Shown here one piece after another: positions 3,001-48,300 of a stretch of 64,000 nucleotides of DNA. The notes under the pieces are model-generated. The model searched no databases. It saw nothing but the letters and a program-made list of their open reading frames with translations, and was not told the DNA's origin. The translations under genes and the position numbers were made by a program. Within the stretch, counting starts at the first letter, position 1; every line of letters starts with the position of its first letter. Source of the DNA: Haplodiscus bocki (lineage: Eukaryota); NCBI GenBank assembly GCA_965655095.1, contig OZ296652.1:21204001-21268000 (forward strand), read 5' to 3'.

Positions 3001-6000
3001 AAGGATGTTATGCCCAATAAAATAGCAGCTGAGACAATTTGCTGCCAAATAAAAGAACTTCCTTTCGGCAAAACGATGGTCGCCTTATCGATTATGCGGG
3101 TGGCACAGCACAACAGACAAGAGGGCGCCACCGTTTGTCAGAACTCACCAATGGTTGAGCTTGAAGAACTGGAAAAGGTACATTTGTGAGAAATTTGTGA
3201 ACACTAGCCGTTTGTCCCAACCCCGTGGAAGATTGCCAGATGATTTTCCCAAATCCCATAAGAGAACCAACGAAGGACCAATCATGCCACAACTAACAAA
3301 GGCGATACCTTTCTCAGAGAAATGGTTTCATTTCGTAAAGTTGGTCAATATTACTCCTTTCGACCTGAAGAGAGGGAGTGTTCTACCAGCATGATGGAAA
3401 ACATACACTCTACATGAATACGAATATGCGACTAGCCCTTGTTAAATGTATGAATATTGAATTATCCTATTAACTTTTCACAAAAGCAATTTATAGAGCT
3501 CTATAACAACACACCGATATGAACGCCACTATAACTCCATACTTCTTTCTACTTGGTATGAAATGATTTAGATCTTATATATTGAAATCTATGCTACAAT
3601 AGTGCTAGTGAAACGCCTACAGTTGTTTTAGCCACAGTTTTTCAAATTACGATAACTTGACCTCTTCAAGTGTTCAATGCATAGACCTCTTGAAATCAGT
3701 GCAATGAGTGAAAACTTATTTGTTTTTATCACGTTGTAAATTTCTTGATATTAGCATTACGCTTGTGACAGTATTCGCAAGCATCATCATAGGGCAGTTT
3801 AAAAATCAAGTTAGCAACCTACTTCATTCCCATTCATTATTATGAAAAGATCCGTCGCGGTTGAGACTGGAGAAACCAACAGTAGCAATGCGATTGAGAG
3901 TTTGTTACAACATACTCCAAGGAGACTGTCAGATCCCGAATCCGAGACATCACCATGTGAAACTGTCACGTCTGGGGACGTTGCACGTTGCACGTCAAGG
4001 AAGAACTGTAACAGACCTACTCACCCAGCAGTCGGGTCGTCTTTGTGAGCTAATGAAAAGTTACTCAGCTAGGTATCACGAAAATTGCACTTTCACTGGG
4101 CTTGAAGGTTCAACAACCCATGGTTTTTTCTTTCAGAGTAGTCAAGATTTCAGTGTAACACGATAGTTTAATTTCCAATGTCACTCTTAACATAATATAG
4201 TTCGTTTCTGATCAATTTTGGCTACTTTTGCCACACTGAAACCCTGAGGAGTCTGCAGCTGACGACTTCTGCCTCACCTGATAGAAAGCAACAAGAATCG
4301 ATTTGACACCAAACGGGGAAGGCACATGAGGAGCTGACACCTGCTGATGACTGATAGCGCCGCTCAACCCGTCACTGACACAGGCCTGAATTAGTGTCTC
4401 CAGAGCAGATACCGTTATTCCAGCAAATGGGACGCGCCCAACTGGGCGAACTAAGCGCACAACATTTGATGATGGAAAACACGGAAGACACACTGACTTA
4501 GAAGGCAACACAAACAAGACTAGGAAGGAGATGACAGCGCACGACGAGGGAAGACATGACAGCTCCCTTTCAGGCACGCAAACACACGGATAACAGCAAG
4601 CGACAGAAGGGGACACTTACCAAAAGACTTCTCAGGTTGCGATGTAGGTCGCCGGCCATTTGTGTGGGCATACCAAACAGCTCTCCCAGAAAGGCACGGA
4701 TGGATCGAAAGTCCGAAAGTGTTTGATGATTTCCTCAGTCTCCATTATAAATATGAACGACAAAAAAGAAATAATTACAGAGACGGAGAAAGCGCACAAC
4801 ACACACATAACACAGAAAATGCAACAGAAATGACGATACAAAGTACAGGAAGGAATACTAACACAAAGATGGCTTTTTCGAAGCTTCCACCAACTCAGAA
4901 GCGTGGAGGAACTCATCCTCACTGTCAAGATAGAACACGCCTTCCAGAACACGCTCAACACACGGTTCATTAGATCCCACTGCATTGCTCTTCTCGGTCC
5001 ACTATGAACGGCAGCGTCCTTTTCAAATCTTCATTGATTGACAACTGGGACTGCTCTAAAACCCCTCGCTCGAAATTCTGACTTAACTAGCCGAGTTTTG
5101 GTTCCAAAGATGGAAAAACATGATTGCCAGAAGACATGATTTGATAAATAAGCACAGCTCTAAAAACAGACAATGTTACTGACGTCAACGATTTTTTCCG
5201 GAAACACAACATGAAAAAAACCAAAACCAAGAAATCTCAAAGCTCGCGTTGACCGGAAGGACTGATCGACCCGTGGGTCATCAATCACAAACCGCGCACC
5301 TGACTCAAAGGAAAACAAACACATTGCCAATGCGTTTTTTTGACACACTTCGAAGAATGAAACAATATATGGTATTGAAATACGCTCGTGCATAGCTATC
5401 AAATTTCCCTTTTGTGAGAAATTTTGAAAAAAGCCTAAATTTGGGCAAAAGAGAGACCAAGGGAAATCAATGAGATCGCTGCGATGAGAACCAGAGTGCG
5501 CGAAAGGCAAAAGGGATAATGCCGCAAAATAAAAATCGATGATACCGCGTCGGACTAGAGACAAAAGCACCCATACTGGCGGTAGAAGGCAAACTTTCTG
5601 GAATCACGAATCAGTTGCCGAAATATGTGACGATCAAAAGACTCGACTTTGTTTTAAGAACGTAACAGAAGCGCATAAAGGGATGACGGATGACGGGGCC
5701 GCAGCCTAATCAAATTGCAGAGTTAACGATATGCAAGCGTCTTGTGAAAGTTACGTAAGCCGGTGCCAAATCTTACTCGGATACGCGGAGAAATTTTGAT
5801 AGAAGAAAACAAAAATTGAAAAAGGATGTTAGGCCCAATAAAATAGCAGCTGAGACAATTTGCTGCCAAATAAAAGAACTTCCTTTCGGCAAAACGATGG
5901 TCGCCTTATCGATTATGCGGGTGGCACAGCACAACAGACAAGAGGGCGCCACCGCTTGTCAGAACTCACCAATGGTTGAGCTTGAAGAACTGGAAAAGGT

Positions 6001-6889
6001 ACATTTGTCAGAAATTTGTGATCACTAGCCGTTTTTCCCAACCCCGCGAAGGATTGCCAGATGATTTTCCCAAATCCCATAAGAGAACCAACGAAGGACC
6101 AATCATGCCACAACTAACGAAGTGATACCTTTCCCAGAGAAGTGGTTTCATCTCGTAAAGTTGGTCAATAATACTCCTTTCGACCTGAAGAGAGGGAGTG
6201 TTCTACCAGCATGATGGAAAACATACACTCTACATGAATACGAATATGCGACTAGCCCTTGTTATATGTATGAATATTTGAATTATCCTAGTAACTTTTC
6301 ACAAAAGCAAATTATAGAACTCTATAACAACACACCGATATGAACGCCACTATAACTCCATACTTCCTTCTACTTGGTATGAAACGATTTAGATCTTATA
6401 TATTGAAATCTGTGCTACAATAGTGCTAGTGAAACGCCTACAGTTGTTTTAGCCACAGTTTTTCAAATTACGATAACTTGACCTCTTCAAGTGTTCAATG
6501 CATAGACCTCTTGAAATCAGTGCAATGAGTGAAAACTTATTTGTTTTTATCACGTTGTAAATTTCTTGATATTAGCATTACGCTTGTGACAGTATTCGCA
6601 AGCATCATCATAGGGCAGTTTAAAAATCAAGTTAGCAACCTACTTCATTCCCATTCATTATTATGAAAAGATCCGCCGCGGTTGAGACTGGAGAAACCAA
6701 CAGTAGCACTGCGATTAAGAATTTGTTACAACATACTCCAAGGAGAATGTCACATCCCGAATCCGAGACATCACCATGTGAAACTGTCCCGTCTGAGGAC
6801 GTTGCACGTTGCACGTCAAGGAGGAGCTGTAACAGACCTACTCACCCAGCAGTCGGCTCATCTTTGTGAGCTAATGAAAAGTTTCTCAG
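1..6889 (+). repeat. Tandem array of a ~2.82-kb unit: copy 1 at 1-2826, copy 2 at 2827-5646, partial copy 3 at 5647-6889. May extend beyond the window's left edge.
   Basis: ctttgttttaagaacgtaacagaagcg occurs at 1, 2827 and 5647. The ORF-track peptides MQASCESY..., MKRSVAVETG... and MLLSLVRRG... recur with the same period. Similarity stops after aagtttctcag at ~6889. Confidence 0.97.
3842..6250 (+). pseudogene. Decayed intron-containing protein gene that makes up the tandem unit (this entry spans copy 2 into copy 3); product unknown
   Basis: The exon MKRSVAVETG...GSS ends at a TT|gtRagc donor present in all 3 copies. In copy 1 the phase-compatible acceptor ccctcag|G at 1431 leads into a long frame (...MTAPFQARKHTD...) interrupted by scattered stops. 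Confidence 0.45.
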
Positions 6890-7422
6890 ATGAAGAAGTG
6901 CACAGATGTCACAAAGAGACCGCCTCCACAAGAACTGCTATTGATTCTACGGCAACACAAGCCAGTCTGACACTTGGATACAAGTGTGATGAATCTTGAA
7001 CGCCATCAAAAAAATTATGACGGTAATAATTTTGTTAATCGACTGCTCGTTGGCAGTACACAAAAAACAGATGCACGGGTGCGTCAGCTTCAATCAAGAC
7101 ACTTTGGATAGTTGGATCGTCTATCCCAGAAACGTTGTACAAAGTCATTTGGAAGCCAAATCATCCATAAACAACAATGATTTGGGCTTTAGTTGAACTG
7201 CCAGTTGGTTGATACTTGGGAATCAGAGATTGAATGTTTTAGGAAATTGAACAACGGACATACTATATTCCGGACTTGTCTCAGTAAGAACAAAAAGGGG
7301 GCAAGTAATGGGATAATATCCGTGGCTCAAAAAAGTTTGTTCATTTAATTTTTTCAACAACATGCAATTTAGGAGAAGATACTGTCTACATTTTCTTCTC
7401 AGTCGAAACACACTTGCCAGCT

Positions 7423-7438
7423 AGAGAGAGACAGAGAG

Positions 7439-7483
<45 letters not shown>
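7423..7483. repeat. (AG)n/(TC)n microsatellite forming the 3' tail of the LINE
   Basis: agagagag run read directly from the sequence. Confidence 0.95.
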
Positions 7484-7485
<2 letters not shown>

Positions 7486-10400
7486 TTTCTCTTTCGAGAT
7501 CCAAAATTCGTTGACAATTAGTTCCGACGATATTTCATTGACTGCAAGTACAATAAAAATAAAATGAAAAAGACAACGTGGGATTGACTTCTTTCTGCAG
7601 AAGTTACGCTTTAACTGTATGTTTGATGAAGTTTTTGAAACCATCGATTATGTTATTTTTCAACAAGAAATGTGCCATTGTGAGAGCACGACCGAAAAAA
7701 GAAACGTTTTCATAAAGCTTGGGGGTCAAATAACGGAGTATACTGGTCGTTGAAACTCGGAGTTGTTGTTCGGACACCTGAAACACTAAAAAAGGAGTAA
7801 ACACGAAAATGTCATTGTCATGTAAAAGTTGACAAAGAAATGAGAATGTAATGTACCCAAATGACAGGAAATAAGCAGAAACTGTGATCTTTGGAGGTGC
7901 TCTTGGTAAGATCGCTTGCGTCTAACACTCCAGGAGAATCAGGAACGTTGAATAAATTCCAGGCGCCTGAGTGATGTAATGTTGGGTTACGAAGCTGGGA
8001 AACCATCAAGCAAAATTGATAACATCATACTATGGTACAACTGCGGCTTTTTTGGAGGGGTTTTGAAGTGTAATATAGACTTCAGAGCAATGAAGATTTG
8101 ACGGGCCTTGTGCAAACTTTTTGTAACGTGATGGTTCCGTTTGAGATCATAATCAACGTACAAACCCTAGTTTTTGTGCAATTTTACGTTCTCAATTAGA
8201 AGGTCAGTCGGAAATGTTGTTTGACCGCTACTGGTAAAGTGAATACATTTAGGTTGTCAGAGTTCACGATTTTTCCAATTACTAGATTCCCGGGAAAAAA
8301 GTTGCCAAAAATGACCATAAAAACCGAGGTTAGAGAAAAAAAGTTTCACATCATCGGCAAACAGCCACACCATGCAGTCCAAGAAGATAGACGGTAAATC
8401 ATCATCAAAAACCAAAAACAAAAGAGGTTCAAAAACAGAGCCCCTAAGAACACAACTGTCGCAATGTATGAGATCTGGACTGATGTCACTGAAATGCACA
8501 TATTAATGTCTATTCGTAAGGTGAAAGCCGAGGAGTGAACCAAAATCTCATTCCAGGTAGATGCTAAATTTTCTGAGCAAGGTGGACTCAGGATTTTGTC
8601 GGAGGCCTTTTCATAGTAAAAAAAAAAGATTTACCGATTTCTCGTAATAAACGGATTACAAAAAGTCAATGAGATGCAGAACAGAACTTTTGAAAGACTG
8701 AAAGCTAAACTGCTGTGGACGAACTTCCGATTTCCAAGCTCAAAAAAAAGGAAACAAAAAAGCGTTTTCTCAGAAGCGAGAGAAAAATCTTAGGCAGCAA
8801 ATAAATTAGATGATAACACATCATACTGCTACGTGATCTTGACATCAAAACACGAGTTATTCGAGCAAATTTCCATATGGAGGGAAATATTTTACAGTAG
8901 AATATGAAACAAAATGAAGCTTAGAATAATATTTCACACAGAAGTGGACATCTTACAATTGTTTTCTTTGGGAAACAATCAAAAATAGAGACTGTGGACT
9001 CTTCAGTTCTCATAACTTCATATGTGGTAGAAGAACTGGAGACATAATCTAAAACAGAATCCAATTTCAGAGCACCAGAGTTTCGAATCGATCCATCATA
9101 AAAATTAAAATTGAAAATTCCATTAAAATCTTTGTTGAAAGTGGTTGGAATTTCAGATTCTAGTAATTTCTCCTGCAACAGAAACATTTGCTTCGGTAAA
9201 CTAGGTTTTTTGAGGCTGTTCAAAATCAAAAAGCATTGGTTGAAGCTTGAAAATGATGAACCATTGGTGTAGATAATCTTATCCGACTCAACAGAATCCG
9301 AAGAATTCCTTTGTAACGATTGAAGAAAATCAAGAGTGTTTTTGACGGGGGTTTTGGGATTTTTTCGTGTAGCTGTATTTAGCTTTTTCAAACAGTGAAT
9401 TGTATGTGAGCTGTATTAAAAGCGGTTGTTCCTCCGTACCTTGCTTTTGATAGGAAAACAAGTTTTTAGACTCCTTGAAACCAACGAATAAAACTCGTTC
9501 ACGTTGGCTTCTGAAGGATATGAAGTAAAACTAAAGTATTCTCAGGAACTGTGAACGTTCACCATTTCGGTAAGATTGTTGAACTAATATTCAGTTTGAT
9601 GTTGATAGAGCTTGTGAAATTCAGAGGAATAGTTAAAACTGTTAGATGAGTGGTGACTGATGGTAATTTTTTCAATAGAGTAACCAGTAATAAAGTTGTC
9701 TTTAGTCACGCTATTGGCAAGAGTTTTTCCACAGCGATGCGTTTGCCGAGTAGTGTTAAAAAGTAGTATTCAACAGAGCTGAGATATTCCGGGAACTCAA
9801 GTTCACGCTTGTTAAAGTTATGCTTAAATGACCACTCTGAGTCGGGGAACTTGAAGTCACCCAGCACGATGAGGGACATGTTGAACTTGTCAGGCGGGCA
9901 GAAGCTTTAGGTTTACCGAATAACATCCGCTAAACAAATACTGACAAAGTCGAAAGGTAATCTAAAGGAGCTTCTGACACGAGGTAGGTAGCAAAAGTTA
10001 AATAGAGTCAGCGAAAAATGAGAATTTTGTAGAGTAGCAGCGACAACAAAATCATAATTTTTAATGACTATCACTCCAGAAATGTTTAGAGCGGAGTTTC
10101 GGCGACAGAGAAAAATAACACGAAAATGAAAACCATGAACGCGATCCGTTCTTTTCACCAAATGGAAAATTGCAAATAAAGAACAGAAATCAGCATCAAG
10201 TAAGGGATTCAACAAAGTCTCAGATAAGAAAAGTGAATCCTTGTTGCGAAGTTCCAGAAGAATTTGCAAAAGAGCACGTTTTTTTGATGTCATTTCTTAA
10301 ATAATCAATAGTAAGAAATAGTTGTTGATAAGGCAATCGGATGAAGTTGCCATTGGAGATGTCAGATCTGTCTGGAACGATGCAAAGATATCATCCGCCG

Positions 10401-30450: not shown

Positions 30451-32081
30451 TATAGCGGTCGTCGCCGCTGTTAATAAGCAGTAAGAGCGAGGTGCCGCGC
30501 CGATATGACTGGACACAGCGAGGCGCCAATAAGATAAAGGCGATTCTATCAACAACACAGGGGCTTGTCAGAAACTGAATTACCCTCAACTCGCCTTAAA
30601 ACAGACTGTACGAAACAATAAACAATGTTGTAACCTAATAGACTTTACTTTTACTTTACTTTCATGTAATCTATCTTCTCAATACTCCCCCAAAAGTTTC
30701 CGTCTGTTTTTAATGTTCTTTATTTGTCATACTTTCTTAATTGCACTTTTATGCAGTTTCAATTATACGCAGCTTCTTTTTCTATCTATTAGACATTCAA
30801 AACATTTAATATTCGCTCTCCTTCTAGTAATCTTTGTATTTTAAACATTTACAGGAACCTGTCTTCCTTATAATTTTAAACTTGTTGAAACGTGTTTGTT
30901 GCTTTCTTATCTAACCTTTGCCCCTCATTGCTTGCCTCCTCGACCAGTTTTACTCAATCTGTCAACTTCTAAACGGCCCTACCGCACAAAAGCCCTTTTA
31001 CCCAGCTCGAAAACAGCAGTACAAATTTCAGCTATGTAATTTTTTTCTACCCTGTATTAAAGTAACGTTTTAAATTGATTTATTTCAAAACCTTTCTTTG
31101 ATTTTTCTGATCTGGGCAGTTCCAGAAAGAGAAAAGTAAAATCAGAAACTTACTAAGACAACCGTCCACGCATCTGAGAGTATTCAATAACGGAAAAGGA
31201 AAACTCCTTTCTTCGATTTAACTTCACCAGTCACGGTTGTTAAATAGTTATTTCCACATTCTAATTTTCCTTTCAACGGTACTGTATGTGGCGCATCGAA
31301 CAGATTCTTATTAAGTAAAAGACGTATCGAGGATATCCGTTCGAGGCAAATGTGAATAGTCAACAAAAGTCAAAAAGTGCTAGATCGCGTTGCAAATGAA
31401 TGACGTAGAATTTTTTGCAAAACTCACGTTTCTTAGTGGTGGTCTTGCACCGGCTTTGAGTAGTCTCAGTTTAGGCACCTGTAGTCTCTGTTTAGGCAGC
31501 TCATTTTTTTGAGGCTTTCATCTTATTTTTTTCACGAATTTGGTGTTGAAAATTGTGCAACGATACTTTTCATGACGTGGTTAGAAAAATCTCCATCGAT
31601 GTGCGTATACATACATAACCGCTACCGTCGTACCGCTTACGGCTCAATCATTGAAGCATGCTTGTAACACAGTCTTCACAAGATGCAAAATCAATACAAT
31701 GCGGTGAAAACAAATCTGTTGAAGCTACCAGTTGCAAAGGAGATGTATCGAAACTGGATTCCTCTGCTGTGGAAGATAAAGTAAAAGAAGATGAAGGAAT
31801 CGGATCGTACACATCGTCAGAATTGGGTCAATTCTGGGATAAAGAGGAAGCTTTGTTAGGAGGGTGCAGCAGGACGGAATGTTCTTACAAGTTGGGCGCC
31901 GTGACCGGAGAGGCTCTGTATGTCTGTATGACTTGTTTCCAACATGGAAAGAAACGTGCTGGGATTTATTTTGCATGTGCAGGACAGTGTCATGATGGGC
32001 ATGATCTGAATGAAATTTACACCAAGAGAAATTTCAAGTGCGACTGTGGTAATTCACCGTTCCCCGGTGTTTGCAAACTGG
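30451..32081 (+). repeat. 1.63-kb direct duplicate of 44196-45817 (Gypsy 3' end + 3' LTR + UBR7 promoter + most of exon 1)
   Basis: Continuous similarity from tcgtcgccgctgttaataagcag to cccggtgtttgcaaactgg. Identical 60-aa minus-strand ORFs at 31184 and 44929. Confidence 0.97.
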
Positions 32082-33189: not shown

Positions 33190-34560
33190 AATGACTGAAG
33201 CTGAATCCGAAAAGGAACTAGGCTCAGATAAGTGAGAAAGCTCCACAGAGCCAGCCCCCCCCCCCAAGGACTTGGAATTTCCACCAACGCACCTTGAAAC
33301 CCGGAGCGGCCTCCAAGGGCGCTGGCAGCTCTGCTGGCGGCGCACCTGGATTTTCAAATATTTTTTCCGATAGTAACTTCATTTCCTCCGTTCCTTGAAA
33401 CGCCTGGAGGACCTCCCCGTGCAGCAATTACCCTACCGTCATGTCTCATGCCCTATTCGTTCAATGGTTCCGGCGACTTCGAACATTACCTTCAACAAGT
33501 CAAAACAGCACCCATGCTGGCCGGCTGGTTCTCACCGAGACATCATCATCGACCACAAATCTTTGACCTCCGGTTCAGAGATAATGCGTTGCATTTCTAC
33601 ACAACCTTGTCCCCGGAGTAACAGGTCGACAATGGTCTATTCGTGTATGCATTTTAACAGAATTACACTACAAATGTTGATATTTTGAAAGCGCGTCTGA
33701 AAGCTGCCAAACAGCAACACGAAATCGCCAACTTTCTTTGCGATTTACGAATTTTGGCACGTCGCGCCTATCATGCCAGTCCACACTTGATAGATCAAAT
33801 TGTCCTCACGAGCTTCGCTGAAGGATTAAAGAGTCCGACTCTTCGCTGAGACTTGAGGAAAGCGAAACCTAGGACGGTGGAAGAAGCACTAACGCTAGCA
33901 ATAGAACTCGAGTGGTTCATTGCGTTGAAAAGGACAAACTATCCCGGATCCGCCTGCCAAAGTAACCTCAATATCAACCCAATTGGCCGGGCAACCCCCT
34001 CAATCTGACACAATCGATGAACTCGTACGGTCCTTAAGGAATGAGGTCGATAACATAAAGCGTTCCACTCAACAGAAACGATTCCTGTGACATACACAGA
34101 AACGGGACCGATTGCCTGGATAAAAACAGGACGTAATAATTCACGGCATCAGACGCCAAACCGTTTCTAGTCGACGGACCGAAATTAGCAAAGTTCTAGG
34201 TATGCAGACGAAAAACGAAACAATTCGAATGACAAGATTTTTCGATCGGTTCGTCTCGATCTTCACAGCCGAAATGAAAACGGTGGACGAAACAATTAGT
34301 CACGTTACGGATCCGGATATCAGAGACGGGATAATAACAGACAAAGTCCACTTTACCACTTTACTCGAAGACGCCAAACCAGCAAACAAATGGTCACAGA
34401 AACGATAAATCCCAAAAAACACAGCGCAAGAATTCCGATATCCAAAGTCAATGTCGTCATTGTGGACAATCAAATCACTTTTCAAACGAATGCGAAGCCT
34501 GCTCAATTGCAAAGGCATCGGACACTTCCGACGTGATTGCAAGGTGCCCAAACCAATCCG
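33190..34560 (+). pseudogene. gag: Gypsy gag remnant with two CCHC zinc knuckles
   Basis: Frame ...LKARLKAAKQ...FLCDLRILARRAY...FAEGLKSPTLR*DLRKAKPRTVEEALTLA. Knuckles CRHCGQSNHFSNEC and NCKGIGHFRRDC at ~34450-34540. Confidence 0.8.
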
Positions 34561-34682
34561 TTAAACAAACAGTGTACGCAAGCGGGTCTTAGCGCAGACT
34601 TGAATACAGAGAATGGCCCACAACAAACAATAGTTCTGATTTCGGTGGTCGGTACCCTCGTAGTGTCTTTGTTGCCATTCAA

Positions 34683-37600
34683 GTGTGCGATAAATTAATC
34701 GAAGCAGTCTGTGACTGTGGGGCAAGTGTTTTTTGTCTGAGCCCGATCATTTTTGAAGATCTGCGGAAGACAAAGGGGATTAAACTGCAAAAGTGCAACA
34801 AGCACGTCAAGGCTGCTAACGGCCTACCTATCGGAGTCAAAGGGATTATCAAGATTCCGCCTACGGCTGGCGACAAACATGAACATGAATTTCATGTGTT
34901 GGAGAAAACTGAGACTGACTGCTTACTGGGACTAGATTTCCTGGAAGATGATCAATGTTATCTTCTTTTTTCCCGGATGGAATTAAGACTCGATCGAACC
35001 CATTCCGTTCGGATGTATCACGAAACTATCATATCACACCAATTCGGTTTTTCTAGTCGTAGCAACCGAAATCACCCTGGTACCAGCAGGTCACCAAAAT
35101 TCTTCTGGCACATATCCTAAAATCTGGGTTAGAAAACCCGGCACCCTCAACGCTGTCTTCGAGCCTCCAAGCAATTGTTCCTTCAAAAAGATTTCTCTGT
35201 TCCAAATATATTGTTCAGCTACTCCGATGAAGTTATTCCAATTGCTTTATAAAATAAAGCTGACTCTGAATTGACACTTCATAAAAATACTAGGCTTGTT
35301 GGATTCTCTGGAATTATTCCTGATGGATTGTTCAAAAGTTTTAATCCCACGCCAAAACCCCTTCCCGTCAAGCAACTTAGCAGGTACGACCTGCGCCACA
35401 TTACCCAGTCAATTGATTCCAGCGTTCCACCAGGCCGACGAAAAAAATTTAAACACCTACTTCAGGATTTCAATAGTATTTTTTAAAAAAGCAAATCGGA
35501 CCTTAGCAAGTGCGACGCGATAACATAAATGCGAAGTTTATCCAGGTGCTAAACCAGTGAAACTTTCAAACCGAGAGTTGCCCTTGCACTGCAAGCAGGG
35601 TTTGCAAGATAAAGTGGACGTTTTCTTAGAGAAGGACTTGATAGCCCCTTGTCACAGACCGTACAACGCCTTCGCCATGCTGGTGCCCAAGAAAATTGGG
35701 AAAACACGCCTAGATTAACGCCAACTCAACAAACAAACAATTAAGACTAGCTGGCGGATCCCATCAATAGGAGAAATTTCGACTTATTAGACGGAAACGC
35801 TTTCTTTTCTACAATCGACATATCCGCAGGTTTTTACCGAGTGCCAGTCGACACAACCAGTCAGAACTTCACCGCTTTCAGTACTCATTTCGGTTCCTTC
35901 AAATGGCTTCGAATGCCAATGAGTCTCAGGAAGTCCAAGTACTTTCCACAATTTAATGAAGCACATTTTGGTTGGTTTCACACGAAGTTTTTGAACGTTT
36001 TCACGATGCTAACCTGGAAGTTAATCCTGCAGAAAATTCCTTTTTTCAAGCAAAAGTGCAGTTCCTCGGCCACATAGTCATTAAAGATGGCGTTCAAGTT
36101 GACCCTAAAAAAGTTGATGTCGCAAAGAAGTTCCCCATCCCAAAAAACCAAATTGAAGTGAAATCATTCCTGTGACTAGCATCCTTTTACAGGCGCTATG
36201 TCTCCAATTTCGCCGCCAATGTCGGTCCTCTCCACAAGGTGAGTGAAACTTGTTCCGTGTTTTCTGGGGCTGAAGAAGCCCAGAACGCTTTTGAAACCCT
36301 GAAAACCCGCCTAACATCAAGACATGTTGTGGCCTTTCCGTGTCTCCTACAGCCTTTATTCTGTATACTGATGCGAGCGAGTTTGTAATGGGAGCTGTTC
36401 TCGCTCAAGTACAAGATGGTATGGAAAGAACCATTTGTTATGCTTCCAAAGCACTTTCGAAGTCGCAAACAAAATTTTCAGCAACTCGTCGCGAACTCCT
36501 TGCCATCGTAACTTTTTCCAGATATTTCCGTTACTACTTGGAACAGAAGTTTACGATAGTAACTGACCATAAGGCCCTCCAATGGCTACACAATTTTGAA
36601 GATCCGGAAGGAATGACAGCCCGTTGGTTAGAGAAATTAGCGTCCTTCGCTTACACGGTTCCCCATAGGCCCGGGATGTCAATTGGTCATCCCGATGGCC
36701 TTTCAAGAGTTCCCTCCCATGAGGTGAATGTTGCTGCACACAATAGTAGCCAAACTGATTCTCTACATCAAGATGAAATCAACCAGTGGGGGTATTCCAC
36801 CGAGCCACAAAAAGATAAGGTTGACCATGCGTCCACCAGTTCAGGGGAATGGCCAAACCGAGGAATTCAGCCAAATTCACATTACTCCCCAGAAGCTGAA
36901 AGTGCGGCTAGTCGCTACCAGGAGATCATTGGGGACCTTTTCCATTCCAGACTCCCTCACACATTGTGTCTCCGTCGACTTCAAAATGTCAGCCATAACC
37001 CGCGAAATCCGGAAAATATTCTCGACGAGCCATCCCAACACTTTGGATCATAGATTGAGTCCACTGTGCTTGCAGTGAATACCCGCTCAGAAAATATACA
37101 TTTACCATTAGGTCCCCAACAAAAGTTCGATAAGAAGCCAACTTGCGCAACGTTGCGCGCCTCCCTCGAACGTATGAGGACGCACGAGGAGGAAAACGGA
37201 GTTCAATTTAGCATGCCCTGCGTCGGTTCCGGTCTCGAAAAACTCGAGTGGCACGTGTTTCGGCAACTGATCCAAGACACACTCAAGACATCACCGGTTG
37301 CCATCGTTGTGTACCTTAAAAAGGAACTTGCATCAGAACCATCAACGGAAGCAACCCAGGCTGTTAAATCGCTAGTCAAAGCTTAAAAATTTGAGGAACG
37401 CTCAAGACATGTCAGAGAATTGGTCTGGAAAGGATGCACACCCCGACACAATGAGCTACAAGGCCTACCCCTTCTATGATGGCAAATGTATAACCAATTA
37501 GCAAGCCTACCTCCATAAAGACGTCCTTTGCCGAAAAGTTGAACCTCTTGACGGCACGGGCCTTACCTCCAACAGTTTTTCCCTCCGGCTTGGAACTCCG

Positions 37601-38640
37601 AAATTATCACATCAATCCATAAGTCAGCCACGGCAGGGCATTTGGGTACCTACAAGAGGATAGAGAAAATACGACGATATTACTGGCCAGGATTCAAGGA
37701 GGATGTGAAGGACATGTTCCTTGTAGCGATCGATGCCAAAAGCGAGGTGGACCTCCAAAGACACACCGGCATTCTCTCATTGACTGGTGGGTTAGTTACC
37801 CCTTCCACCACATTGGCTGGGATTTTCTTGCACCTTTTCCGATGTCGAATAATTGTCGATATACTTCGTCAATGTTAATTGACTGTCATTTCAAGTGGTA
37901 CGAAGCTATTCCACTGCCTGATCAACGAGTTGAAACAACTACCAGCGCTCTACTGAACCACTGTATTTGTCTGTTTCTAATGCCCTCATAGCATACATAC
38001 GACTAAGGTCGAAACTTCGAGTCCGAACTTTTTCAACAATTGACGAGACGTCTAGAAATCGACGAAACTCGCCCTACGTCCCTCCATCTTCATTCCAACG
38101 CTGTTATTGAACCAATGAATCTAACATGTCGAAGGGCCTGGATCAGGATCAATCGGATTGGTCCACATTAGTACCGTTTGTTCTGATGGCTTACCGATCA
38201 TCGGTCCACGAATCCACAGAAATTCACACCATATTTTCTCGTGTTTGGACATGAAATATCATTGCCACTCGACTTGATGTACACACCTCCCGAGAAGTGT
38301 GAGCCATCGTCTTTGAATAAGCAAGTGTTAGAACGACAAGAAGCAAAGCGTTTAATCTAGTCCGACGAAACACTACTGCTCAGCAGCTCCGACGAAATGC
38401 TTAGTATAATTTTAATGTTCATAGACCAGTGTGCAAAGAAGGTGATTGCGTTCTTCTTCATTACCCCGTTACCCCAACGGGTTGTAGCCCCAAAATATCC
38501 AGTCATTGGCGAGGCCCCTACCGCATCAATAAATGTCTCAATGATGTTGATTAAGAAATCGAAGAAATGAGCAACGGGAACCAACTCGTTGTACATTACG
38601 ATCGACTCAAACGGTACCATGGAGTCATAGCTCCTCCATC
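34683..38640 (+). pseudogene. pol: Gypsy pol remnant: protease, RT (YxDD block missing), RNase H, macrodomain, integrase
   Basis: Protease CDCGAS and LLGLDFL. RT TAFSTHFGSFKWLRMPM and VQFLGHIV. RNase H LYTDASEFVMGAVL...RRELLAIV...TDHKAL...ARW. Integrase H...GHLG...YYWPG...CDRC, D*GRNFESE and WRGPY...VVHYDRLK. Confidence 0.95.
36916..37320 (+). pseudogene. TARG1/OARD1 (Poa1p-like) macrodomain embedded in pol
   Basis: Joined across frameshifts: YQEIIGDLF..DSLTHCVSVDFKMSA...YIYH*V..QKF.KKPTCATLRASLERMRTH.EENGV.FSMPCVGSGLEKLEW...LIQDTL.....IVVY. This is colinear with the OARD1 motifs GDLF, DSLAHCISED.RMG, YIYYLITK, KPTY..L..SLE.M, MPRIGCGLD.L.W and ITVY. Confidence 0.88.
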
Positions 38641-39379
38641 ACTCATTCCCGAGCATAACCCGCTCTCCAAAAATGTTCCGACTAGTGAACAATCTCAACG
38701 GTCTGACCACTCCCATTGTGAGTATGACCTTGCGAACGTTTTCCTTTTCGCCTTCTGCCCCTCCTGTGTCTTCTTTCCGTCCCAAGCTCATCGAGACGCC
38801 TACACCTATTTCCCCTCAGCGATCCTTGCCGCCGGAGTTTTCGCCAACACTTTCGGCCCCTCTCTCCTCTCGAAATGTTTTCAACGCTTCCACTCTACTA
38901 GCCTCTTCTTCGTCCTCTTGTGGTAAATCGCCCCTCTCTAGAATTACTCCAGGTGAGAGCTCCTTTCCAACATCTAGCCGTCGAGGTATACATTTTAGCA
39001 AGCCTTCGCCGTCAACACCGCCTGGACAGTTCGGAGACGAAGCATCTTCCTTCCAAAGAACTTCACCGTCTTCCCCAAACTCCACATTAGAATCTGTGAT
39101 TGCAGGAGCCTCAAAGCACCTCCATGACCGTCTTCTTCGGGAACCTCGCCTACCATCAACACGAGAATTGCGCGCCACCACTGTGGCACAACGCAGAGCA
39201 CAGCAACTCTGCCAGGCCCGACTGCCCCTGAACGTTACTGCTTTTTTCGCCCCTCAGAAGTCCAAAAACCGCAATCGAACCAAGCACTTCTAATCCACAT
39301 TAATACCTTCTAAGCAGCCATTGCCAGTGCCAAGTGATCTTTGAGTATTTGGTTCTCTAGGACACTCAACACGCCAAAG

Positions 39380-41496
39380 ATGTCGACGAGCAACTTAGCG
39401 ATGGTTCTATTACTCTCTCTTATTATTTTTGTTTTATCCGATGTTCAATTTACCGCCCACTTGAGCAATGCATTGGACAAGCCGGTCTTCAAAAAAGGTG
39501 CAGCGTTTGTCTTCAAATACCAAGCTGTGACGCCAGAAAGTAAGAGTAAGTTTCGTGTGTTTTCCCTGTTTCCCAGGATACCAAACATCAACATGACAAA
39601 CGTGTATACAATTCTTGAGACCATTCAGACTCAATGAATGATTTGAATACAGTTAAACGCTGCCAGACAGAACTAGTGACACACCTGTACAAACATTTCT
39701 TCGACCAGCTCGAAGATAAACCTAATATGTTAGAAATAGAGATAGACGCCGCTCAAAATGATCAGGAGCAGTTAAAGCGGACTGCCGCTTGCTTCATACC
39801 GCCACCCATTGAACATCATGACCCTTCACGTAGCAAACGCGCAGTGGGTCTCTTTCCAGCGGCGGCTGGAGTCGCGGGGTTGGTGCTAGGAGCACCAGTC
39901 AAAGACGCTGTGTTTTCAGCGCTCTCCGTTTTCGGTCTTTGTACCAACAGCAAAGGATTGGGAAAGAAAGTTGATGCAATTATGGCAACGCAACAGCAAT
40001 TTTGCGAGGTCTTGCAACTAGTTCAAACAAAAATTGATGAAACTTTCTCCTTGGCAACGAAGTAGAAAAGACAAAAGAAAAGCGTCAAAAAAATAACAGA
40101 AGTTGTTGGTGACCAATTGAAGTTACTAGAAAAAGATTCACTGTAGATCAAAGGCATCATTTCACACCTGTTTGAGTGCAATATTCTTCTAACACAAAGC
40201 ATGATATTAATGCAACAGGTCCGAGATTACACTGATCACCTGGGAAGCTTGTACACACACACCGAATCCTACGGAGCCGTTCTTTACGCTCACAAATTTG
40301 CACTCTTCTCCACAATCTTGTCACTTGCAGCTGGTTACCTTACCCGTCAATTCCTACTCCCTTCGCAATTAGCCACGATATTAAGTGAGGTCTCCAGCGA
40401 CGAAATCTTCAGATGGTCCAAACTCTCTCCAGCCATCCCTGCAGTTCAAGAAGCCATTTATTATGAGATCCAAGTGGTTCCGGAAGTCTCCGTCCTTTCC
40501 TGGGGCATCTGTTTTGTCCTTGGGATTCCCATGAATTCAAAAAAGCCCTTTAGCGTTTTCCAGCCAACCCCTCTTTATTAGCCTAACGATCACGGTGATA
40601 CTGCTTCTATATATCACTTCCCCGATCCCCTTCTCGCTGTTTCCACTGACAATAAGCGTTTCGCCGAACTAGACGCACCCAGCCTTCAACAATGTTCGGG
40701 TAATAACCGTATCAAACTTTGCGGGGAGTGTTTTTCTACCACTACCGGCGAAATAATTCTTTGCTGACCTTTATTGTTTTACAATAACGATATTCCATCC
40801 CTGAGAAACTGGAAAGTGGAGTCTTTTCTGCCCGATGCACCTCAAGCATTTTATTTAGCCGGCGGAATGTATCATATTATATCACGAGATCCCATTATCC
40901 CGATGAAAGACGATAGTGTTGATGCAGGCTTTTCTATTTCCACATCATGTCAGGCCTGCCGTGTCCGCCCAAGTTGTAAAAGCAAACTTTGTTTCAATCA
41001 AGGGGACATAGAATTGGTTCCTGACATGAATTTCTGTAAAAACAACCCGGAACCGTTGCTCGCTACGAGGGAACTTAACCCGTACCTTGATCAGATTTTC
41101 AAGCAAGTCCTCAACGCCACACACAAATTTCAGACTTACTCTATTGCAGAAGCACGGCAGTCCGTTCTGAGCACCGTCCGTCTTGAATTGGCGGAACTCC
41201 CAAACGTCAAACGCGTGTCTCCTGAGACCCTTTCCGATTTGCCTCGCTCTTTTGCCCAGTATTACTCGTCCATCTCACCCGCCACGTCAGCAGCTCTTTC
41301 TTTGTACCTTCCCACGCGTACGGCAGTCCTTTTCTCTTTGGTTTCCTGCACATTATTTCTGCTCACCTTGTGCATTGGCTTCACGCTCTTCCGTCGACAA
41401 TGGAGACGTTTGTTTGCACGTCTACAACGTTTCTTCCGCGGAACCTCTTTGTCGTTTTCTGCACATTGTGTAAGACTCTCAACCTGCAGCTTCTGA
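39380..41496 (+). pseudogene. env: Env / class-I fusion (F-like) glycoprotein remnant, full span
   Basis: Signal peptide MVLLLSLIIFVLS. Furin site RSKR followed by fusion-peptide-like AVGLFPAAAGVAGLVLG. Heptad-like region and Cys-rich domain. C-terminal TM AVLFSLVSCTLFLLTLCIGFTLF followed by basic RRQWRR. Confidence 0.85.
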
Positions 41497-44400
41497 TACT
41501 TCTTTTCTGTACTTGTCAGTCACTGTGTTTATGGCTTTACATGCTCTTTCCAAAGCAGCCCTTCACCGTCCTTATTTCAACGTTCCACTCACTCCTACTG
41601 AACCCATTAACATTACTAACAACCCTACTATTAACCTCCCAGCCACTTCCGCTGTTTCCACCCCTGCCACTAACGTTCCACAACGTGTTTAACCCTTAGT
41701 TACCGCCCCAATCTACAGTGCACCATTCAACTAACTTCTCCAACCCATTTACTGTGTATCTTCCAATATAGCAATCACTCCTTCACTCAGCGTCCTAACT
41801 TCCAATCACGTTGAACAGAGATAGCGTTTCCGCGTCTCTTGTCAGCAGATAATCTCTGCTTCTACCTTTGGGATGTTTCCGTGCCTTGTTTCTTTTGAGT
41901 TGCTCAGTTCTGCAAACTCGTTTTCGTGCTATTTATAATAATCCTATGTTTCCGTAGGCCTCTTCTTGTGCACCCCCTTTTTTCTGTCGTTCCCCTTAAA
42001 TTCCGTTTTCTAATCAGTGTGATCGAGTGGTGATGTTTTGTTTTCTTTAGGTTCTACTTCAACTTTTTCGCCACCCCATCAGTCATTGCCTGTATTGAGC
42101 AGCTCAGGACGGATACATTCAGTTGCAGTCAACGACCATGTATTCTTGGTTAAAGATCCACAGTTCAGGGTCACAAAGTTCTTTCCTGAGGATGGTAGCG
42201 TTCGGCTCCGAAAATCAATTGCTTTGATCGCCCCCTTCGAGCGTTCCCTGCAGCAATTCTAGCTGCCACCCCCTACCCCCTGTGAGGCTTCGGTTACGGC
42301 CGATCTGCCTCCGGCCAACTGCTTTTGCCCCGAACCACACCTCAAATTCTGCCTGACATTTCGGAATTAGCTGTTGAGGTGGACTTGCCCCCAACGGGAT
42401 GCGATGGATCAGTGGCTTTCCCTGATGAAGGATTACTCCTCCGTTGACAATCTAATTAAGGTTGTTTCCGAGGCTCACAAGCAATTGGAACAGTCGCAGC
42501 TACAGCTTCTTACTACACAGCAATGAGAAGCTGCTCGGCAATCTCAAGTTGCGTCCCTGACTGCTGAAGTGGAACACCTCCGGTCCCGTCTCCAGGACCT
42601 TAATCACGCGCACAATGAACCTCTGAGCCACTCAATGGAACAACTCGAAAGGATTAGCTCGTTGCGAATCCAACTAACCGCTAAATCGTCCAACCGAGCC
42701 CATATTACGCCTTCTACGACAGTTACGTTCCACCCTCCCCACCGACTTCGACGATGATCTTACACCGGATGATACCTTATATCACTTCCTCTGCTGTGCG
42801 CCAGAAGCTGACATCTCCACTCTTTCTGGACGTGCTAACTTATTGCTAATATGTCTTCACCCGGACAAATGCGACGCCAGATGACCCTCTGGTTCAAGCT
42901 TCCGGCCGCCTGGTTACTTGCATCACACTGATCGAGCGAAACTTTCCACACCAGCCCTCCGTCAAGTCTACGATCCTTGCGGCCTGGATGGGCTGCGCGG
43001 TCTTGTACGAAACACTCTTCGCTGCCCGCGATGTACGCCTAGCGCACCCGATGGGTTTCCCACACAGCAAAGGCCCCTTGAGTATCCTCAATTGGAGCTG
43101 CCTTTCAGCTACGGCACATGAGCGCCCTCCCGCTTCTCTTGCCTTCGTACCGCCGGCTTCGCTTGTGTGGGATCTGTTCTCTTGATGCCGCCACCCCCTT
43201 TTTGCTTAGTCTGTGCCCTTCGCTGGGCTTGTCGTGTGCTGTCTTCATTTCTCAGGCAGCGTTTTGTTTTCAGCTTCCTGGGCTGTATGCGTCGCGGACA
43301 ATGCATATCTTTGGTGCCAGTTCAGTAGCTGCTGCTGGAAATACTCTCGATGGTGGTGTTTTCAAACGATGTCGGTCTCTAACTGTCATTCCTGGACTAC
43401 ATTTAGTACATCGCTCTGCCCGATTCCGCTGCAAAACAGTCGAGTTTCATCTTCAAGGACTTCTCCGTTTGTACAAAACATTTTACAATTTCAGATAGTC
43501 CTCTGCCATAACCAATAATAATTCGCGGACGCCCCACTCTTCTAATTTTAATAACCTTTTAACTCCACAAGAACTTGTTGATGAACTCTACTCTCCCTTG
43601 TGGAGTCTCTGCTATTATCTACTGTCAGTGGAAGGGCTCGCCACTCATCTATCGCCTTCTACGAGAGTCCTTTCTTACCATTCACGCCATCGCTCACTTG
43701 CTGTCACATGGCAAAGAAAAAAACCTTCACCTGCTCCGACAATACCGCTTTCTTGACTTAGACATCCGTATAGAGCTTAACATGTACTTCTTGCTTTCTA
43801 AATATAACCACGACCTGTAACAGTTGCGGAAAAGGAAGCCTCCCCTCAATAACAAGCGCCGCCGGTCACGCCTCCGACAACAACTACAACACTCACTACT
43901 ACAACAACTAGAACTACATAATCTCCATCAAGAACGGCACCTGCAGCATCAGATACATCGACTTTCATGACAACCCCCCTCCCCCAACCTGAACACCATC
44001 AACGCCCGCATGCACCGACAACATCTGCCACTCGCCTGCCGACACCTTCTTTCAGCCCCTTGACGCACCTTCTGTTGCCTTCTGGTTGCTCTTCATTAGA
44101 CTCCTTCAGTGGTGGTCTTCGAGGGGTTGCTCGTTGGCCAGCAGTTCCTGCTTTCTTCTCATTAAGAAGACGCTCTTCCAACACGGCGAGACTGATATGG
44201 CGATCGTCGCCGCTGTTAATAAGCAGTAAGAGCGAGGTGCCGCGCCGATATGACTGGACACAGCGAGGCGCCAATAAGATAAAGGCGATTCTATCAACAA
44301 CACAGGGGCTTGTCAGAAACTGAATTACCCTCAACTCGCCTTAAAACAGACTGTACGAAACAATAAACAATGTTGTAACCTAATAGACTTTACTTTTACT

Positions 44401-44881
44401 TTACTTTCATGTAATCTATCTTCTCAATACTCCCCCAAAAGTTTCCGTCTGTTTTTAATGTTCTTTATTTGTCATACTTTCTTAATTGCACTTTTATGCA
44501 GTTTCAATTATACGCAGCTTCTTTTTCTATCTATTAGACATTCAAAACATTTAATATTCGCTCTCCTTCTAGTAATCTTTGTATTTTAAACATTTACAGG
44601 AACCTGTCTTCCTTATAATTTTAAACTTGTTGAAACGTGTTTGTTGCTTTCTTATCTAACCTTTGCCCCTCATTGCTTGCCTCCTCGACCAGTTTTACTC
44701 AATCTGTCAACTTCTAAACGGCCCTACCGCACAAAAGCCCTTTTACCCAGCTCGAAAACAGCAGTACAAATTTCAGCTATGTAATTTTTTTCTACCCTGT
44801 ATTAAAGTAACGTTTTAAATTGATTTATTTCAAAACCTTTCTTTGATTTTTCTGATCTGGGCAGTTCCAGAAAGAGAAAAG

Positions 44882-45019
44882 TAAAATCAGAAACTTACTA
44901 AGACAACCGTCCACGCATCTGAGAGTATTCAATAACGGAAAAGGAAAACTCCTTTCTTCGATTTAACTTCACCAGTCACGGTTGTTAAATAGTTATTTCC
45001 ACATTCTAATTTTCCTTTC
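44882..45019 (+). repeat. Probable short 3' LTR (~138 bp); duplicated at ~31137-31274
   Basis: Follows the polypurine tract. Ends taaaa...tttca would form a TGAAA/TTTCA inverted pair if one G>A change is assumed. Boundaries are inferred. Confidence 0.55.
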
Positions 45020-45393
45020 AACGGTACTGTATGTGGCGCATCGAACAGATTCTTATTAAGTAAAAGACGTATCGATGATATCCGTTCGAGGCAAATGTGA
45101 ATAGTCAACAAAAGTCAAAAAGTGCTAGATCGCGTTGCAAATGAATGACATAGAAATGATTGCAAAAGTTACGAATCTTATTGATGGTTTTGCACCGGCT
45201 TTGAGTAGTCTCAGTTTAGGCAGCTGATGTTTGTTTTTTTAAGGCTGTGATTTCGTTTTTTGTCCCACGAATTCGGTGTTGAAAATTGTGCAACGATCAT
45301 TTGTATATCCTACTATTTAACAAAACTTCCATCGATGTGCCTCTACATAGATACCTGCTACCCTCGTACCGCGTAGGGCTCAATTATTGAAGC

Positions 45394-48300
45394 ATGCCTG
45401 TAACACAGTTTTCACAGGATGCAAAATCAATAGATTGCGGTGAACACAAACCTGTTGAAGCTACGAGCTGCAAAGGAGATGGGTCGAAACAAGATTCCTC
45501 TGCTGTTGAAGATGAAGTAAAAGAAGATGAAGAAGTCGAATCTTACACATTGTCAGAATTGGGTCAAATCTGGGACGAAGAGGAAGCATTGTTAGGAGGG
45601 TGCAGCAAGACGGAATGTTCTTACAAGTTGGGCGCCGTGACCAGACAGGCTCTGTATATTTGTATGACATGTTTCCAACATGGAAAGAAACGTGCTGGAA
45701 TTTGTTTTGCATGTGCAGGACAGTGTCATGATGGGCATGATCTGATTGAAATTTACACCAAGAGAAATTTCAGGTGCGACTGTGGTAATTCACTATTCCC
45801 CGGTGTTTGCAAACTGGAGCCATCAAAAGTAGTAATTAATCTTGGTTAGTAGTGATTCGCCTTTGAGGTTTGGTATTTTTAGATCTTAGATGGTGGCATT
45901 ATATTCAAACGTGCGGTGCAAATTCTTTTTGACGAAGTAGAGAATTCTAAAACTCTTAAATTAAATATTGAAATGGCTATATAAACTACTCATAGAATAA
46001 GTTTGAACTGGAAAATGTTTAGTGTGAAACAGTTTCCCTCAAGCGTGACCAAAAAAAGAACATTTTCTCAATGCTTTGGACGTGAACATAATTTAATTGT
46101 AGGTAACGTTTATGATCAAACATTCGAAGGGCTGTATTGTAAATGCAACCGCCAGTATCCGGATGAGAGTCCGGATGCTTGTAGCAGTGCAATGGTTCAA
46201 TGTATCGTTTGTGAGGATTGGTATCATTTGGAACACCTGGAGTGTGGACCCCAAGGGGTTCCTGACTCAGATGCGGACTTTGCTGAAGTCATTTGCGATC
46301 TTTGCATGTCAGGAAATGCGAAGATATTGGCTGGTTATCACAACACATTGGGTGCTTTCTCCCACAACGCTGAAGATTTGAAAGAAGAGGATGAATGCAA
46401 GGAGGGCAGGTAAGCCAGCGATGACCATTGATTACTAAGGATGAGACTTTTGGCGAATCCTGGTTTTTGCAGGATTCAAATTGACGGAGTCAAAATTTTT
46501 GACGGATTGAAATTGATTCATCTCTGTTTTATCTAAGCTGAACGGAGTTGAACCGTTTGAGCACATTTTTTTGTGGTCTCTGAATTAAGTATTGACGAAG
46601 AAACAATAAATTCAATATTTTTATGTCACCAGAGTGGAAATAGTCATAACAGTCGCAAAGCAAATTCGATTCCAAAAAATCAAATTCAGAATGTAAAGTG
46701 ATTCTCAATTATATGTTCACATTCATATCAATAAATGGGTTTCTCTTATCTACCAAAAGTTTGTTTCTTGTTTTCATTTTCTGATTATGGGCTCCTTTTT
46801 TAAAAGCGAGTCTCTTCAATAACGGAAAGATTTTCAAAACGGAAGTTTTTAATTTTGCGAGGTACTTATGTAGTCACTCAGTTGTATTGACGCTTTTTTA
46901 TACAACATTTTTCGACTTTGTACGATATGCACATAAAAATTTTGATGCGACATTTTTGAAATGTATATACTACAATATGCTACGGACCACCTTACATACC
47001 ACATACATACTACAGACCGCCTTTGAAACTTTCTAATCCTGTTTTCCCAGTTTGCAGAAGAAGGGAATAAGGCTGAAGGGGGACGCTAGGGACAAGCATG
47101 GAGCAGATCCAAACAATTCAATTTTTCTCTCAATACTCTGAATATACTGTTATTAAGGAACACTAGTAGTGAGAATGACCGGGTAAGTTGAAGTAGCTAA
47201 AAGTATTCAATAATAATGCGTAGTATCGAGACAATGGCGTGGCTGCGGTAACGCACGAAATTTTTGAAAAATATTCCATCTTGGGTTCCGCAGTTATGTG
47301 GAAAGTACTTGGTACTGGGAGTGACCGGCAAAGGTCGATTGTGCAAAAGTTCGTATCTGCCGTATCATCAGAGCAAGGGTGTGGCCATCAGTTGGCTGTG
47401 CGAGAGCAGCGAATTACAAAAATCTTGAAAACATTGAGAATAATCCACCTTGGCTGTACGGGCTTCTGAGCAAGGCTTAGTAGTCCAAGTGGCCAGCGAA
47501 CGTGAAAGTGCACAAAGTCTTCAATACTGATTGGCGCTAGTATCCCGGCATTGGCGTGGCTGTTCTCAACTTGTGGAAAGTCCAAGAATCTTGAGAATTT
47601 TCCAACTTGAGTGTTGAGATTACGGAGGTCGGGTTAAGTAGTGGGAATGGCGGGCGAACTTAAAATGGGGAAAAAGTTTCCAATTCTAATCCGGTGGGAG
47701 TATCTCTTCAAGAATCTTGCCATGGCTAACTTGTAGGAACGCACTGCAGGAAGTCAGAAGAATCTGAAAAATTTATTGAATTTTTAATTCATTCTGACTG
47801 AAAGGAATAATATGTATTGTAAAGTGGCTTATGCACAGTTTTTCATCCCGTCGAAAGCTTTGTGATGTCATCAGAAAGTCTAATCATTTAGTGTAAACGG
47901 TCCAAAAGGCCTTTTTGGAAACATTTTGGCGGGTACTTGTTCATTTTTCCGTTCAGAAAATTTTTTGAAGTTTGGTCTGAAAAATGAACAACAACCTCAA
48001 AGGTAATGTTTCAGATTATAATGTTTAGAATGAGACACTGTGGGAAGTGTCTTAAGGTGTCCCCGAGAAGTGGTACATGTAAAAAATTCAAGTTCTTAAA
48101 ATTCAAATGGTTTATTCTAGTAAACAAGACATTGGACTTCTTTCAAGTCGGCACATTTTCATTCAAGTTGGTCATCAAAATTGTTACGTGCGCTGAGTCT
48201 CAAATTGTGAAAATTTAGGTTCAGATCATGAAAGTTGTTTACTCTTAGTTGACCGAATTTATGCAACTTTCTTTTTGATGTTTCAATTGAGAATAACAAG

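Follow-up and report, generated by a model that had tools for sequence, protein, structure and literature searches.

The domain reported here comes from a retrotransposon in a 64,000-nucleotide stretch of Haplodiscus bocki DNA (the whole stretch analysed, hereafter the window), and its closest described relative is human TARG1 (OARD1, C6orf130; PDB 4J5Q, 4J5R and 4J5S). The two agree in fold (TM score 0.81–0.84, 37–39% identity) and have Lys84, Asp125 and the glycine loops in common, whereas TARG1 is a free host protein and the element domain lies inside a retrotransposon Pol. The next-best fold is that of DarG from the DarTG toxin-antitoxin system (PDB 5M31 and 5M3E), which is reported to erase thymidine-linked ADP-ribose on DNA. 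The catalytic lysine is common to DarG and the element domain, but their identity is 23%, and of the catalytic pair of TARG1, Lys84 and Asp125, DarG is described as retaining only the lysine (PMC9411070, PMC8120803), while the element domain also has the aspartate. No transferase domain like the DarT partner of DarG was found in the Pol, Gag, env and accessory frames scanned with Pfam.

ADP-ribose-related domains have been described in other mobile elements and viruses. NADAR, found in the Gypsy Pol of Ectocarpus and in Tx1 LINEs of the oyster, is likewise a conserved ADP-ribose-processing family within Gypsy Pol, but it has an unrelated fold, occupies the N-terminal part of Pol and is bacterial-like (PMC12477816). 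Moreover, NADAR is reported to act on guanine-N2 marks, whereas TARG1 acts on thymine, uracil-N3, guanine-N1 and acidic residues. The epsilon-like endogenous retroviruses of teleosts are env-bearing animal retroelements with a captured macro domain (Basta et al. 2009, via PMC4977317), but they belong to the Retroviridae and not to Gypsy, and their macro genes are additional reading frames (PMC4977317). Related cargo is thus already in print, both as macro genes of fish endogenous retroviruses (PMC4977317) and as NADAR in algal Gypsy Pol (PMC12477816). The macrodomains of alphaviruses and coronaviruses are reported to oppose host ADP-ribosylation from within the replication polyprotein (PMC7729036). 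Those of alphaviruses, in contrast to TARG1, rank far lower in Foldseek and are 10–14% identical to the element domain. The macrodomains of these two virus groups are of the MacroD type, with another catalytic scheme. Macro (A1pp) domains also occur in some non-LTR elements; neither A1pp term was found in the literature searched for A1pp in non-LTR elements.

The element resembles errantiviruses in the wide sense, the Ty3/gypsy elements that carry env (PMC13524379), in its gag, pol and LTRs and in an env that is probably F-like. In these elements too, RNase H and integrase are separated by a short domain, in a region for which the errantivirus survey describes a pseudo-RNase H and mini domains (PMC13524379). 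The words 'macro', 'OARD' and 'ADP' have 0 occurrences in the main text of that survey, which modelled the RNase H-integrase region. No TARG1-type domain in a Gypsy Pol was found in the literature searched, a scope outside which lay most subscription papers, Repbase, Dfam and GyDB.

The window copy and its unbroken relatives

The Pol of the element holds a TARG1/OARD1-type macrodomain between RNase H and integrase, and the domain is under purifying selection. In the window copy (Table 1), its motifs lie at 36916–37320 and are spread over two reading frames: GDLF shares the frame of RNase H, DSLTHCVSVDFKMSA and YIYH* are in the next frame, and KPTCATL...GSGLEKLEW...IVVY returns to the first. 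The motifs quoted for this interval in an earlier sequence-only reading, the first part being in the RNase H frame, were all found as given. A macrodomain profile run against the six frames of the window matched only 36938–37117 (24 bits) and 37084–37317 (62 bits). Compared with an unbroken copy, the macrodomain of the window has 15.0% mismatches, 4 indels (2 of them frame-shifting) and one stop, and the RT, RNase H and integrase parts have 11–18% mismatches; since the macrodomain falls within the range of its neighbours, it decayed together with the rest of pol, in agreement with the earlier proposal that it is a native domain. The window copy has a glutamate at the Asp125 position, its Lys84 region is broken, and it cannot make the macrodomain. 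Because Pfam gave no match on the two broken macrodomain pieces of the window, unbroken natural copies were studied instead. The Pfam Macro match that the sequence-only reading expected was obtained in the unbroken copy (E 1.1e-4; 22.6 bits, the cut-off being 22) but not in these pieces.

Table 1. Parts of the element copy in the window, with positions in the window
Feature	Position	Strand	Basis or remark
5' LTR	30451..31244	+	direct repeat with 44196-44989; 2 mismatches in first 800 aligned bases
gag remnant (capsid part)	33424..34236	+	tblastn with Gag of young copy, 66% identity
aspartic protease	34623..35048	+	Pfam gag-asp_proteas E 4e-6
RT and connection, broken	35683..36346	+	alignment to unbroken copy (RVT_1 E 5e-34 there)
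RNase H	36347..36708	+	Pfam RT_RNaseH E 3e-29; coordinates from alignment to unbroken copy
variable linker before macrodomain	36709..36909	+	28% mismatch to unbroken copy
TARG1/OARD1-type macrodomain, broken	36910..37317	+	profile, phmmer, Foldseek; extent by alignment to unbroken copy
short linker and pre-integrase segment	37318..37578	+	segment also in macro-less relatives; likely the 'mini' domain of PMC13524379, section 7
integrase (HHCC finger, catalytic core, C-terminal domain), broken	37579..38623	+	alignment to unbroken copy
env-like gene, broken	39310..41731	+	tblastn 56-69% to 811-codon frame of young copy
accessory frame 1	41890..43118	+	coiled coil and HPDK, J-domain-like end; Pfam DnaJ only E 0.18
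accessory frame 2	43268..43826	+	without Pfam family; SGNH-like by eye only
3' LTR	44196..44989	+	direct repeat with 5' LTR

No clear target-site duplication was found around the window copy, though its LTRs are present. Despite the heavily decayed interior, the LTRs have just 2 differences from each other in 800 bases. Each is followed by a further 830-base repeat, only about 90% alike between the two sides and with a PBS-like site; LTR and repeat together occupy 30451–32081 and 44196–45817. Candidate readings of near-identical LTRs on a decayed interior are recent mobilisation in trans, gene conversion and a tandem remnant. Elsewhere in the window, a unit of about 2.8 kb is repeated in tandem over positions 1–6889, its copies being 95–96% alike.

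The host genome of 1.5 Gb contains many copies of the family. In a DNA search, 40 of 124 candidates were scored, and these were the window itself and 39 copies at 81–83%. The protein search listed 150 matches of 6040 first-look candidates, and 41 of the 150 have open frames of at least 1560 codons, 14 of these being within the best 30. In the unbroken stretch, Pfam finds RT, RNase H, Macro, integrase finger, core and C-terminal domain on one frame, the integrase being recognized by Integrase_H2C2, rve and Integrase_p58_C, and the Gag of the unbroken copy by Retrotrans_gag, Ty3_capsid and zf-CCHC. The protease is added in full-length relatives, which gives the order PR-RT-RNase H-Macro-integrase on one frame of 1628 codons, the single intact frame that had been predicted. 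Three young copies, 13.7–14.3 kb long, contain gag, pol, an env-like frame and two accessory frames, and all three have LTRs of 772–803 bp that are 99.4–99.9% alike, 4-bp target duplications and a TGG-starting primer-binding site after the 5' LTR. The pol order, LTRs, target duplication and primer-binding site are those of a Ty3/gypsy LTR retrotransposon. The LTRs of the young family (L013–L018) start with TATAAC and end with GTTAAA, not TG...CA.

The same layout is found in at least six further subfamilies, whose macrodomains are 46–71% identical to that of the reference copy, and a frame of about 800 codons follows pol in every subfamily whose locus extended that far. This env-like frame, which agrees with the earlier description of the element as env-bearing, matches Baculo_F in a young copy at E 3e-4, below the Pfam cut-off; a basic cleavage site and a hydrophobic peptide are visible by eye, and the gene is probably F-type. 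The accessory frames in the L015 locus are at 3430–4740 and 2636–3286 (minus strand). The accessory frame with the coiled coil and HPDK was matched in 5 of the 10 subfamily loci tested, several of which end early. The linker on the 5' side of the macrodomain is variable in length across relatives (25–96 aa).

The assignment of the domain to the TARG1/OARD1 type, made earlier from the letters alone, was borne out by both sequence and structure searches. By sequence, the best-scoring relative of solved structure is human TARG1 (phmmer E 7e-28, against 3e-5 for DarG). The AlphaFold2 model of the 139-residue element macrodomain has a mean pLDDT of 94, and in Foldseek it places TARG1 at ranks 1–8 (E 5e-14) and DarG at ranks 9–10. 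Lys84 and Asp125 are both present in all 21 element domains aligned, namely 11 of the window's clade, 3 divergent ones from the same genome and 7 from other elements. Among the 30 best-scoring family copies, 29 have both residues, the aspartate being present in 30/30 and one copy having isoleucine for the lysine; thus the catalytic residues expected by the sequence-only reading are kept in the family but not in the window copy. In addition, Gly43, Ala45 and Gly123, which we take to be the glycine loops of the ADP-ribose pocket, are present in 11/11 domains of the window's clade. From these residues, the element macrodomain is predicted to be an active ADP-ribosylhydrolase.

Since dS is saturated between distant subfamilies, the estimate of selection was pooled over three close subfamily pairs, in which the dN/dS of the macrodomain is 0.056, 0.162 and 0.115. 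The pooled value of 0.10 lies between that of RT-RNase H (0.05) and that of the flanking linkers (0.38), and the macrodomain differs from the linkers (Fisher p 0.001), which is the purifying selection that had been anticipated. Taken with the other tests of the sequence-only reading, a profile match exists, other copies carry the segment, and intact copies keep the catalytic and pocket residues.

Distribution and phylogeny of the macrodomain

An RT-RNase H query, which is blind to the macrodomain, listed 120 proteins, of which 85 reach from RNase H as far as the integrase finger; the other 35 stop short of it. Among the matches listed, all 23 with an RNase H at least 65% identical carry the macrodomain, with a gap of 241–332 aa between RNase H and integrase, whereas it is present in 0/62 of the more distant relatives, whose median gap is 108 aa. 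A broader macro profile run without filters on the gaps of these 62 distant relatives gave no match either. The slot between RNase H and integrase ranges from 55 to 283 aa in the macro-less relatives. In the RT tree (39 rows, with 26 of 63 macro-less proteins kept after thinning at 66% identity and two long branches omitted), the window's clade is one branch (100/100) and its sister group (100/100) is macro-less. The presence in 23/23 close relatives and the absence from the 62 distant ones, sister group included, indicate that the macrodomain is an insertion.

Macrodomain carriers are scattered across the RT tree. In two other Gypsy families of the same genome (L119/L121 and L122–L126), whose RT is 42–46% identical, the slot between RNase H and integrase likewise holds a TARG1-like domain (L119:4696–5139, E 1e-8; L125:4588–5031, E 9e-18). 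We had considered these families as macro-less controls and rejected them because each has a divergent macrodomain. On the RT tree they branch separately, and the AU test rejects a topology that unites them with the window's clade (p 0.029). Their domains, which Pfam misses, retain lysine and aspartate in 3/3, Gly43 in 0/3 and Gly123 in 1/3, and are still constrained (dN/dS 0.08–0.20). Thus the glycine loops were lost and the constraint stayed, so constraint need not equal TARG1 activity. A TARG1-like domain between RNase H and integrase is also found in the pair P0022 and P0252, presumably insect-type Gypsy elements judging from their RT motifs. Other carriers have it after integrase (P0021, P0095 and P0143) or beside the protease (P0199, P0129 and P0169). 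The window element is therefore not the only one of its kind: a TARG1-like domain fills this slot in three Gypsy groups that are more distant, two from the same genome and one insect-type.

Several of these carriers have features of their own. The P0252 Pol has two tandem macro-like stretches (138 and 36 bits), and P0143 bears the JGI label O-acetyl-ADP-ribose deacetylase beside a transposase. In the Gypsy Pol P0021 (L135:1107–6107), integrase is followed by a TARG1-like domain and by one of the Tpt1/KptA family, a possible case of writer and eraser on one polyprotein as judged from these two domains. A metagenome scan with P0021 gave its own contig only, and no match to the insect-type P0022 was found in the viral contigs scanned. 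The P0199 family (87 members, ENA) has Gag-protease-macrodomain frames of about 830 aa, without RT. When P0199 was searched in the host genome, only its macro part matched (40–48%), and its Gag part led to other Gypsy families, those taken up above as controls.

Thinning kept 38 of the 123 unlabelled full-length domains for the macro tree, which had 67 rows in all. The phylogeny against host OARD1 suggested by the sequence-only reading separates the two: the clade's domains group with P0199 on a single branch (97/99) that does not contain the host gene L049. The P0199 macrodomain nests within the window's clade, which suggests transfer between elements. The remaining element domains are placed among host sequences in other parts of the tree, on weakly supported branches. 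At depth the tree is poorly resolved, with 35 of 64 inner branches open, and it does not point to a donor. Nor is a common origin of all 21 element macrodomains rejected (AU p 0.21), so repeated capture is unproven; to account for the scattered pattern, the domain must have been captured repeatedly, passed from element to element, or lost many times.

Possible roles of the macrodomain

We give about even chances to the reading that the element macrodomain removes ADP-ribose tags set by host PARPs on the RNA, cDNA or proteins of the element. This reading draws on the match to TARG1, the catalytic pair, the low dN/dS, the presence throughout the clade, the scatter of carriers on the RT tree, the chemistry of TARG1 and the helicase-PARPs of the host. 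Thymidine-linked ADP-ribose slows DNA synthesis, and human TARG1 is reported to reverse this mark on single-stranded DNA (PMC8501950). According to a preprint (10.64898/2026.03.31.715305), PARP10 and PARP15 modify uracil-N3 and guanine-N1 of RNA; TARG1, alone among the hydrolases tested there, removes these base marks, at least tenfold more efficiently than it acts on protein, and its Lys50, Arg86 and Arg126 help RNA activity or binding. Translated within the Pol polyprotein, the macrodomain would be packed into the particle beside RT, integrase and RNA. There, U, G or T bearing ADP-ribose on the base would be unable to pair, which would stall reverse transcription, and a TARG1-type domain in the particle could clear those marks; after protease cleavage, the macrodomain may remain joined to the integrase end.

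Candidate writers of such marks would be the host's fusions of RNA helicase and PARP, a plausible opponent whose link to the element is circumstantial. There are 31 host PARP matches, and 6 of the 8 in long frames examined are such fusions. The SF1 RNA helicase-PARP frames (L127–L132; G000 C11, C12, C2, C5 and C3) are 1680–1890 codons long in the stretches examined, and three of them contain a ZNFX1 domain, which has 4 matches genome-wide. By eye, the PARP triad reads H-Y-E in two of the frames (L128 and L129) and H-Y-I in three (L130–L132), and L128 has two PARP stretches. The host also has two neighbouring TARG1-like frames on the minus strand (L096:4986–5969 and 7234–8457), one with an unknown N-terminal domain.

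Several findings count against the mark-clearing reading. Most Gypsy relatives replicate without a macrodomain, a TARG1-like gene (L049) is already present in the host, the divergent L119–L126 groups stay constrained despite the loss of the glycine loops, and a single origin of the element macrodomains is not rejected. Furthermore, the Lys50 and Arg126 positions are not more often basic than their counterparts in host enzymes (7/11 clade domains against 21/46 host or unlabelled ones, and 8/11 against 27/46, respectively). On the side of this reading, the Arg86 position is basic in 11/11 clade domains against 26/46 host or unlabelled ones, kin among these not being independent, and it is the only one of the three RNA-binding positions with a suggestive excess in the clade.

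It is rather unlikely that the domain is instead an aid to integration, borne by integrase, that binds ADP-ribose to target PARP-marked chromatin or clears integration gaps or breaks for repair; its partner would then be an ordinary DNA-repair PARP instead of an immune one. The position fits, directly before integrase here and directly after it in P0021, P0095 and P0143, and so do the many TARG1-like matches fused to parts of DNA ligase III. TARG1 is reported to be recruited to damage sites (PMC4695847), and PARP2 is described as assisting LINE-1 integration. However, the clade's domain likewise occurs in the 87-member P0199 family, in a Gag-protease frame that has neither RT nor integrase, and the two catalytic residues kept in 21/21 domains would be unneeded by a pure reader of ADP-ribose.

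A housekeeping role without any conflict is also unlikely. The domain would remove incidental ADP-ribose caps from the phosphate ends of RNA or DNA, such as RNase H products or primers, or hydrolyse O-acetyl-ADP-ribose. The pairing with a Tpt1/KptA-family domain in P0021 (Pfam E 3e-6) is in line with this, and the NADAR of algal Gypsy elements has been proposed to process RNA intermediates (PMC12477816). Yet end caps are described as removable by several host hydrolases, and a general need would leave the absence from 62/62 distant relatives, among the matches listed, unexplained. Least probable is a structural spacer or passenger, that is, a captured host gene that Pol tolerates in a permissive slot and that is kept only for folding or spacing, since the variable slot length of macro-less relatives (55 to 283 aa) and the degenerate pocket of the L119–L126 groups would suit it, but the dN/dS of 0.06–0.16 in three subfamily pairs and the pocket and catalytic residues, invariant in the window's clade at 46–71% identity to the reference copy, do not.

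Returning to the clearing of host marks, a wider form of it is possible but doubtful: the RNA-sensing helicase-PARPs of animals would ADP-ribosylate the bases of retroelement RNA and cDNA as an unrecognised defence paralleling bacterial DarTG, and Gypsy elements would have answered repeatedly with TARG1-type erasers passed between lineages. As Pfam scores the domain at or below its cut-off or misses it, annotation of Gypsy elements may have passed over it widely. ADP-ribose linked to the bases of RNA and DNA is a new finding in animals, and the retention by a selfish element, under strong selection, of the only hydrolase type reported to erase such marks is indirect evidence of their use against mobile elements.
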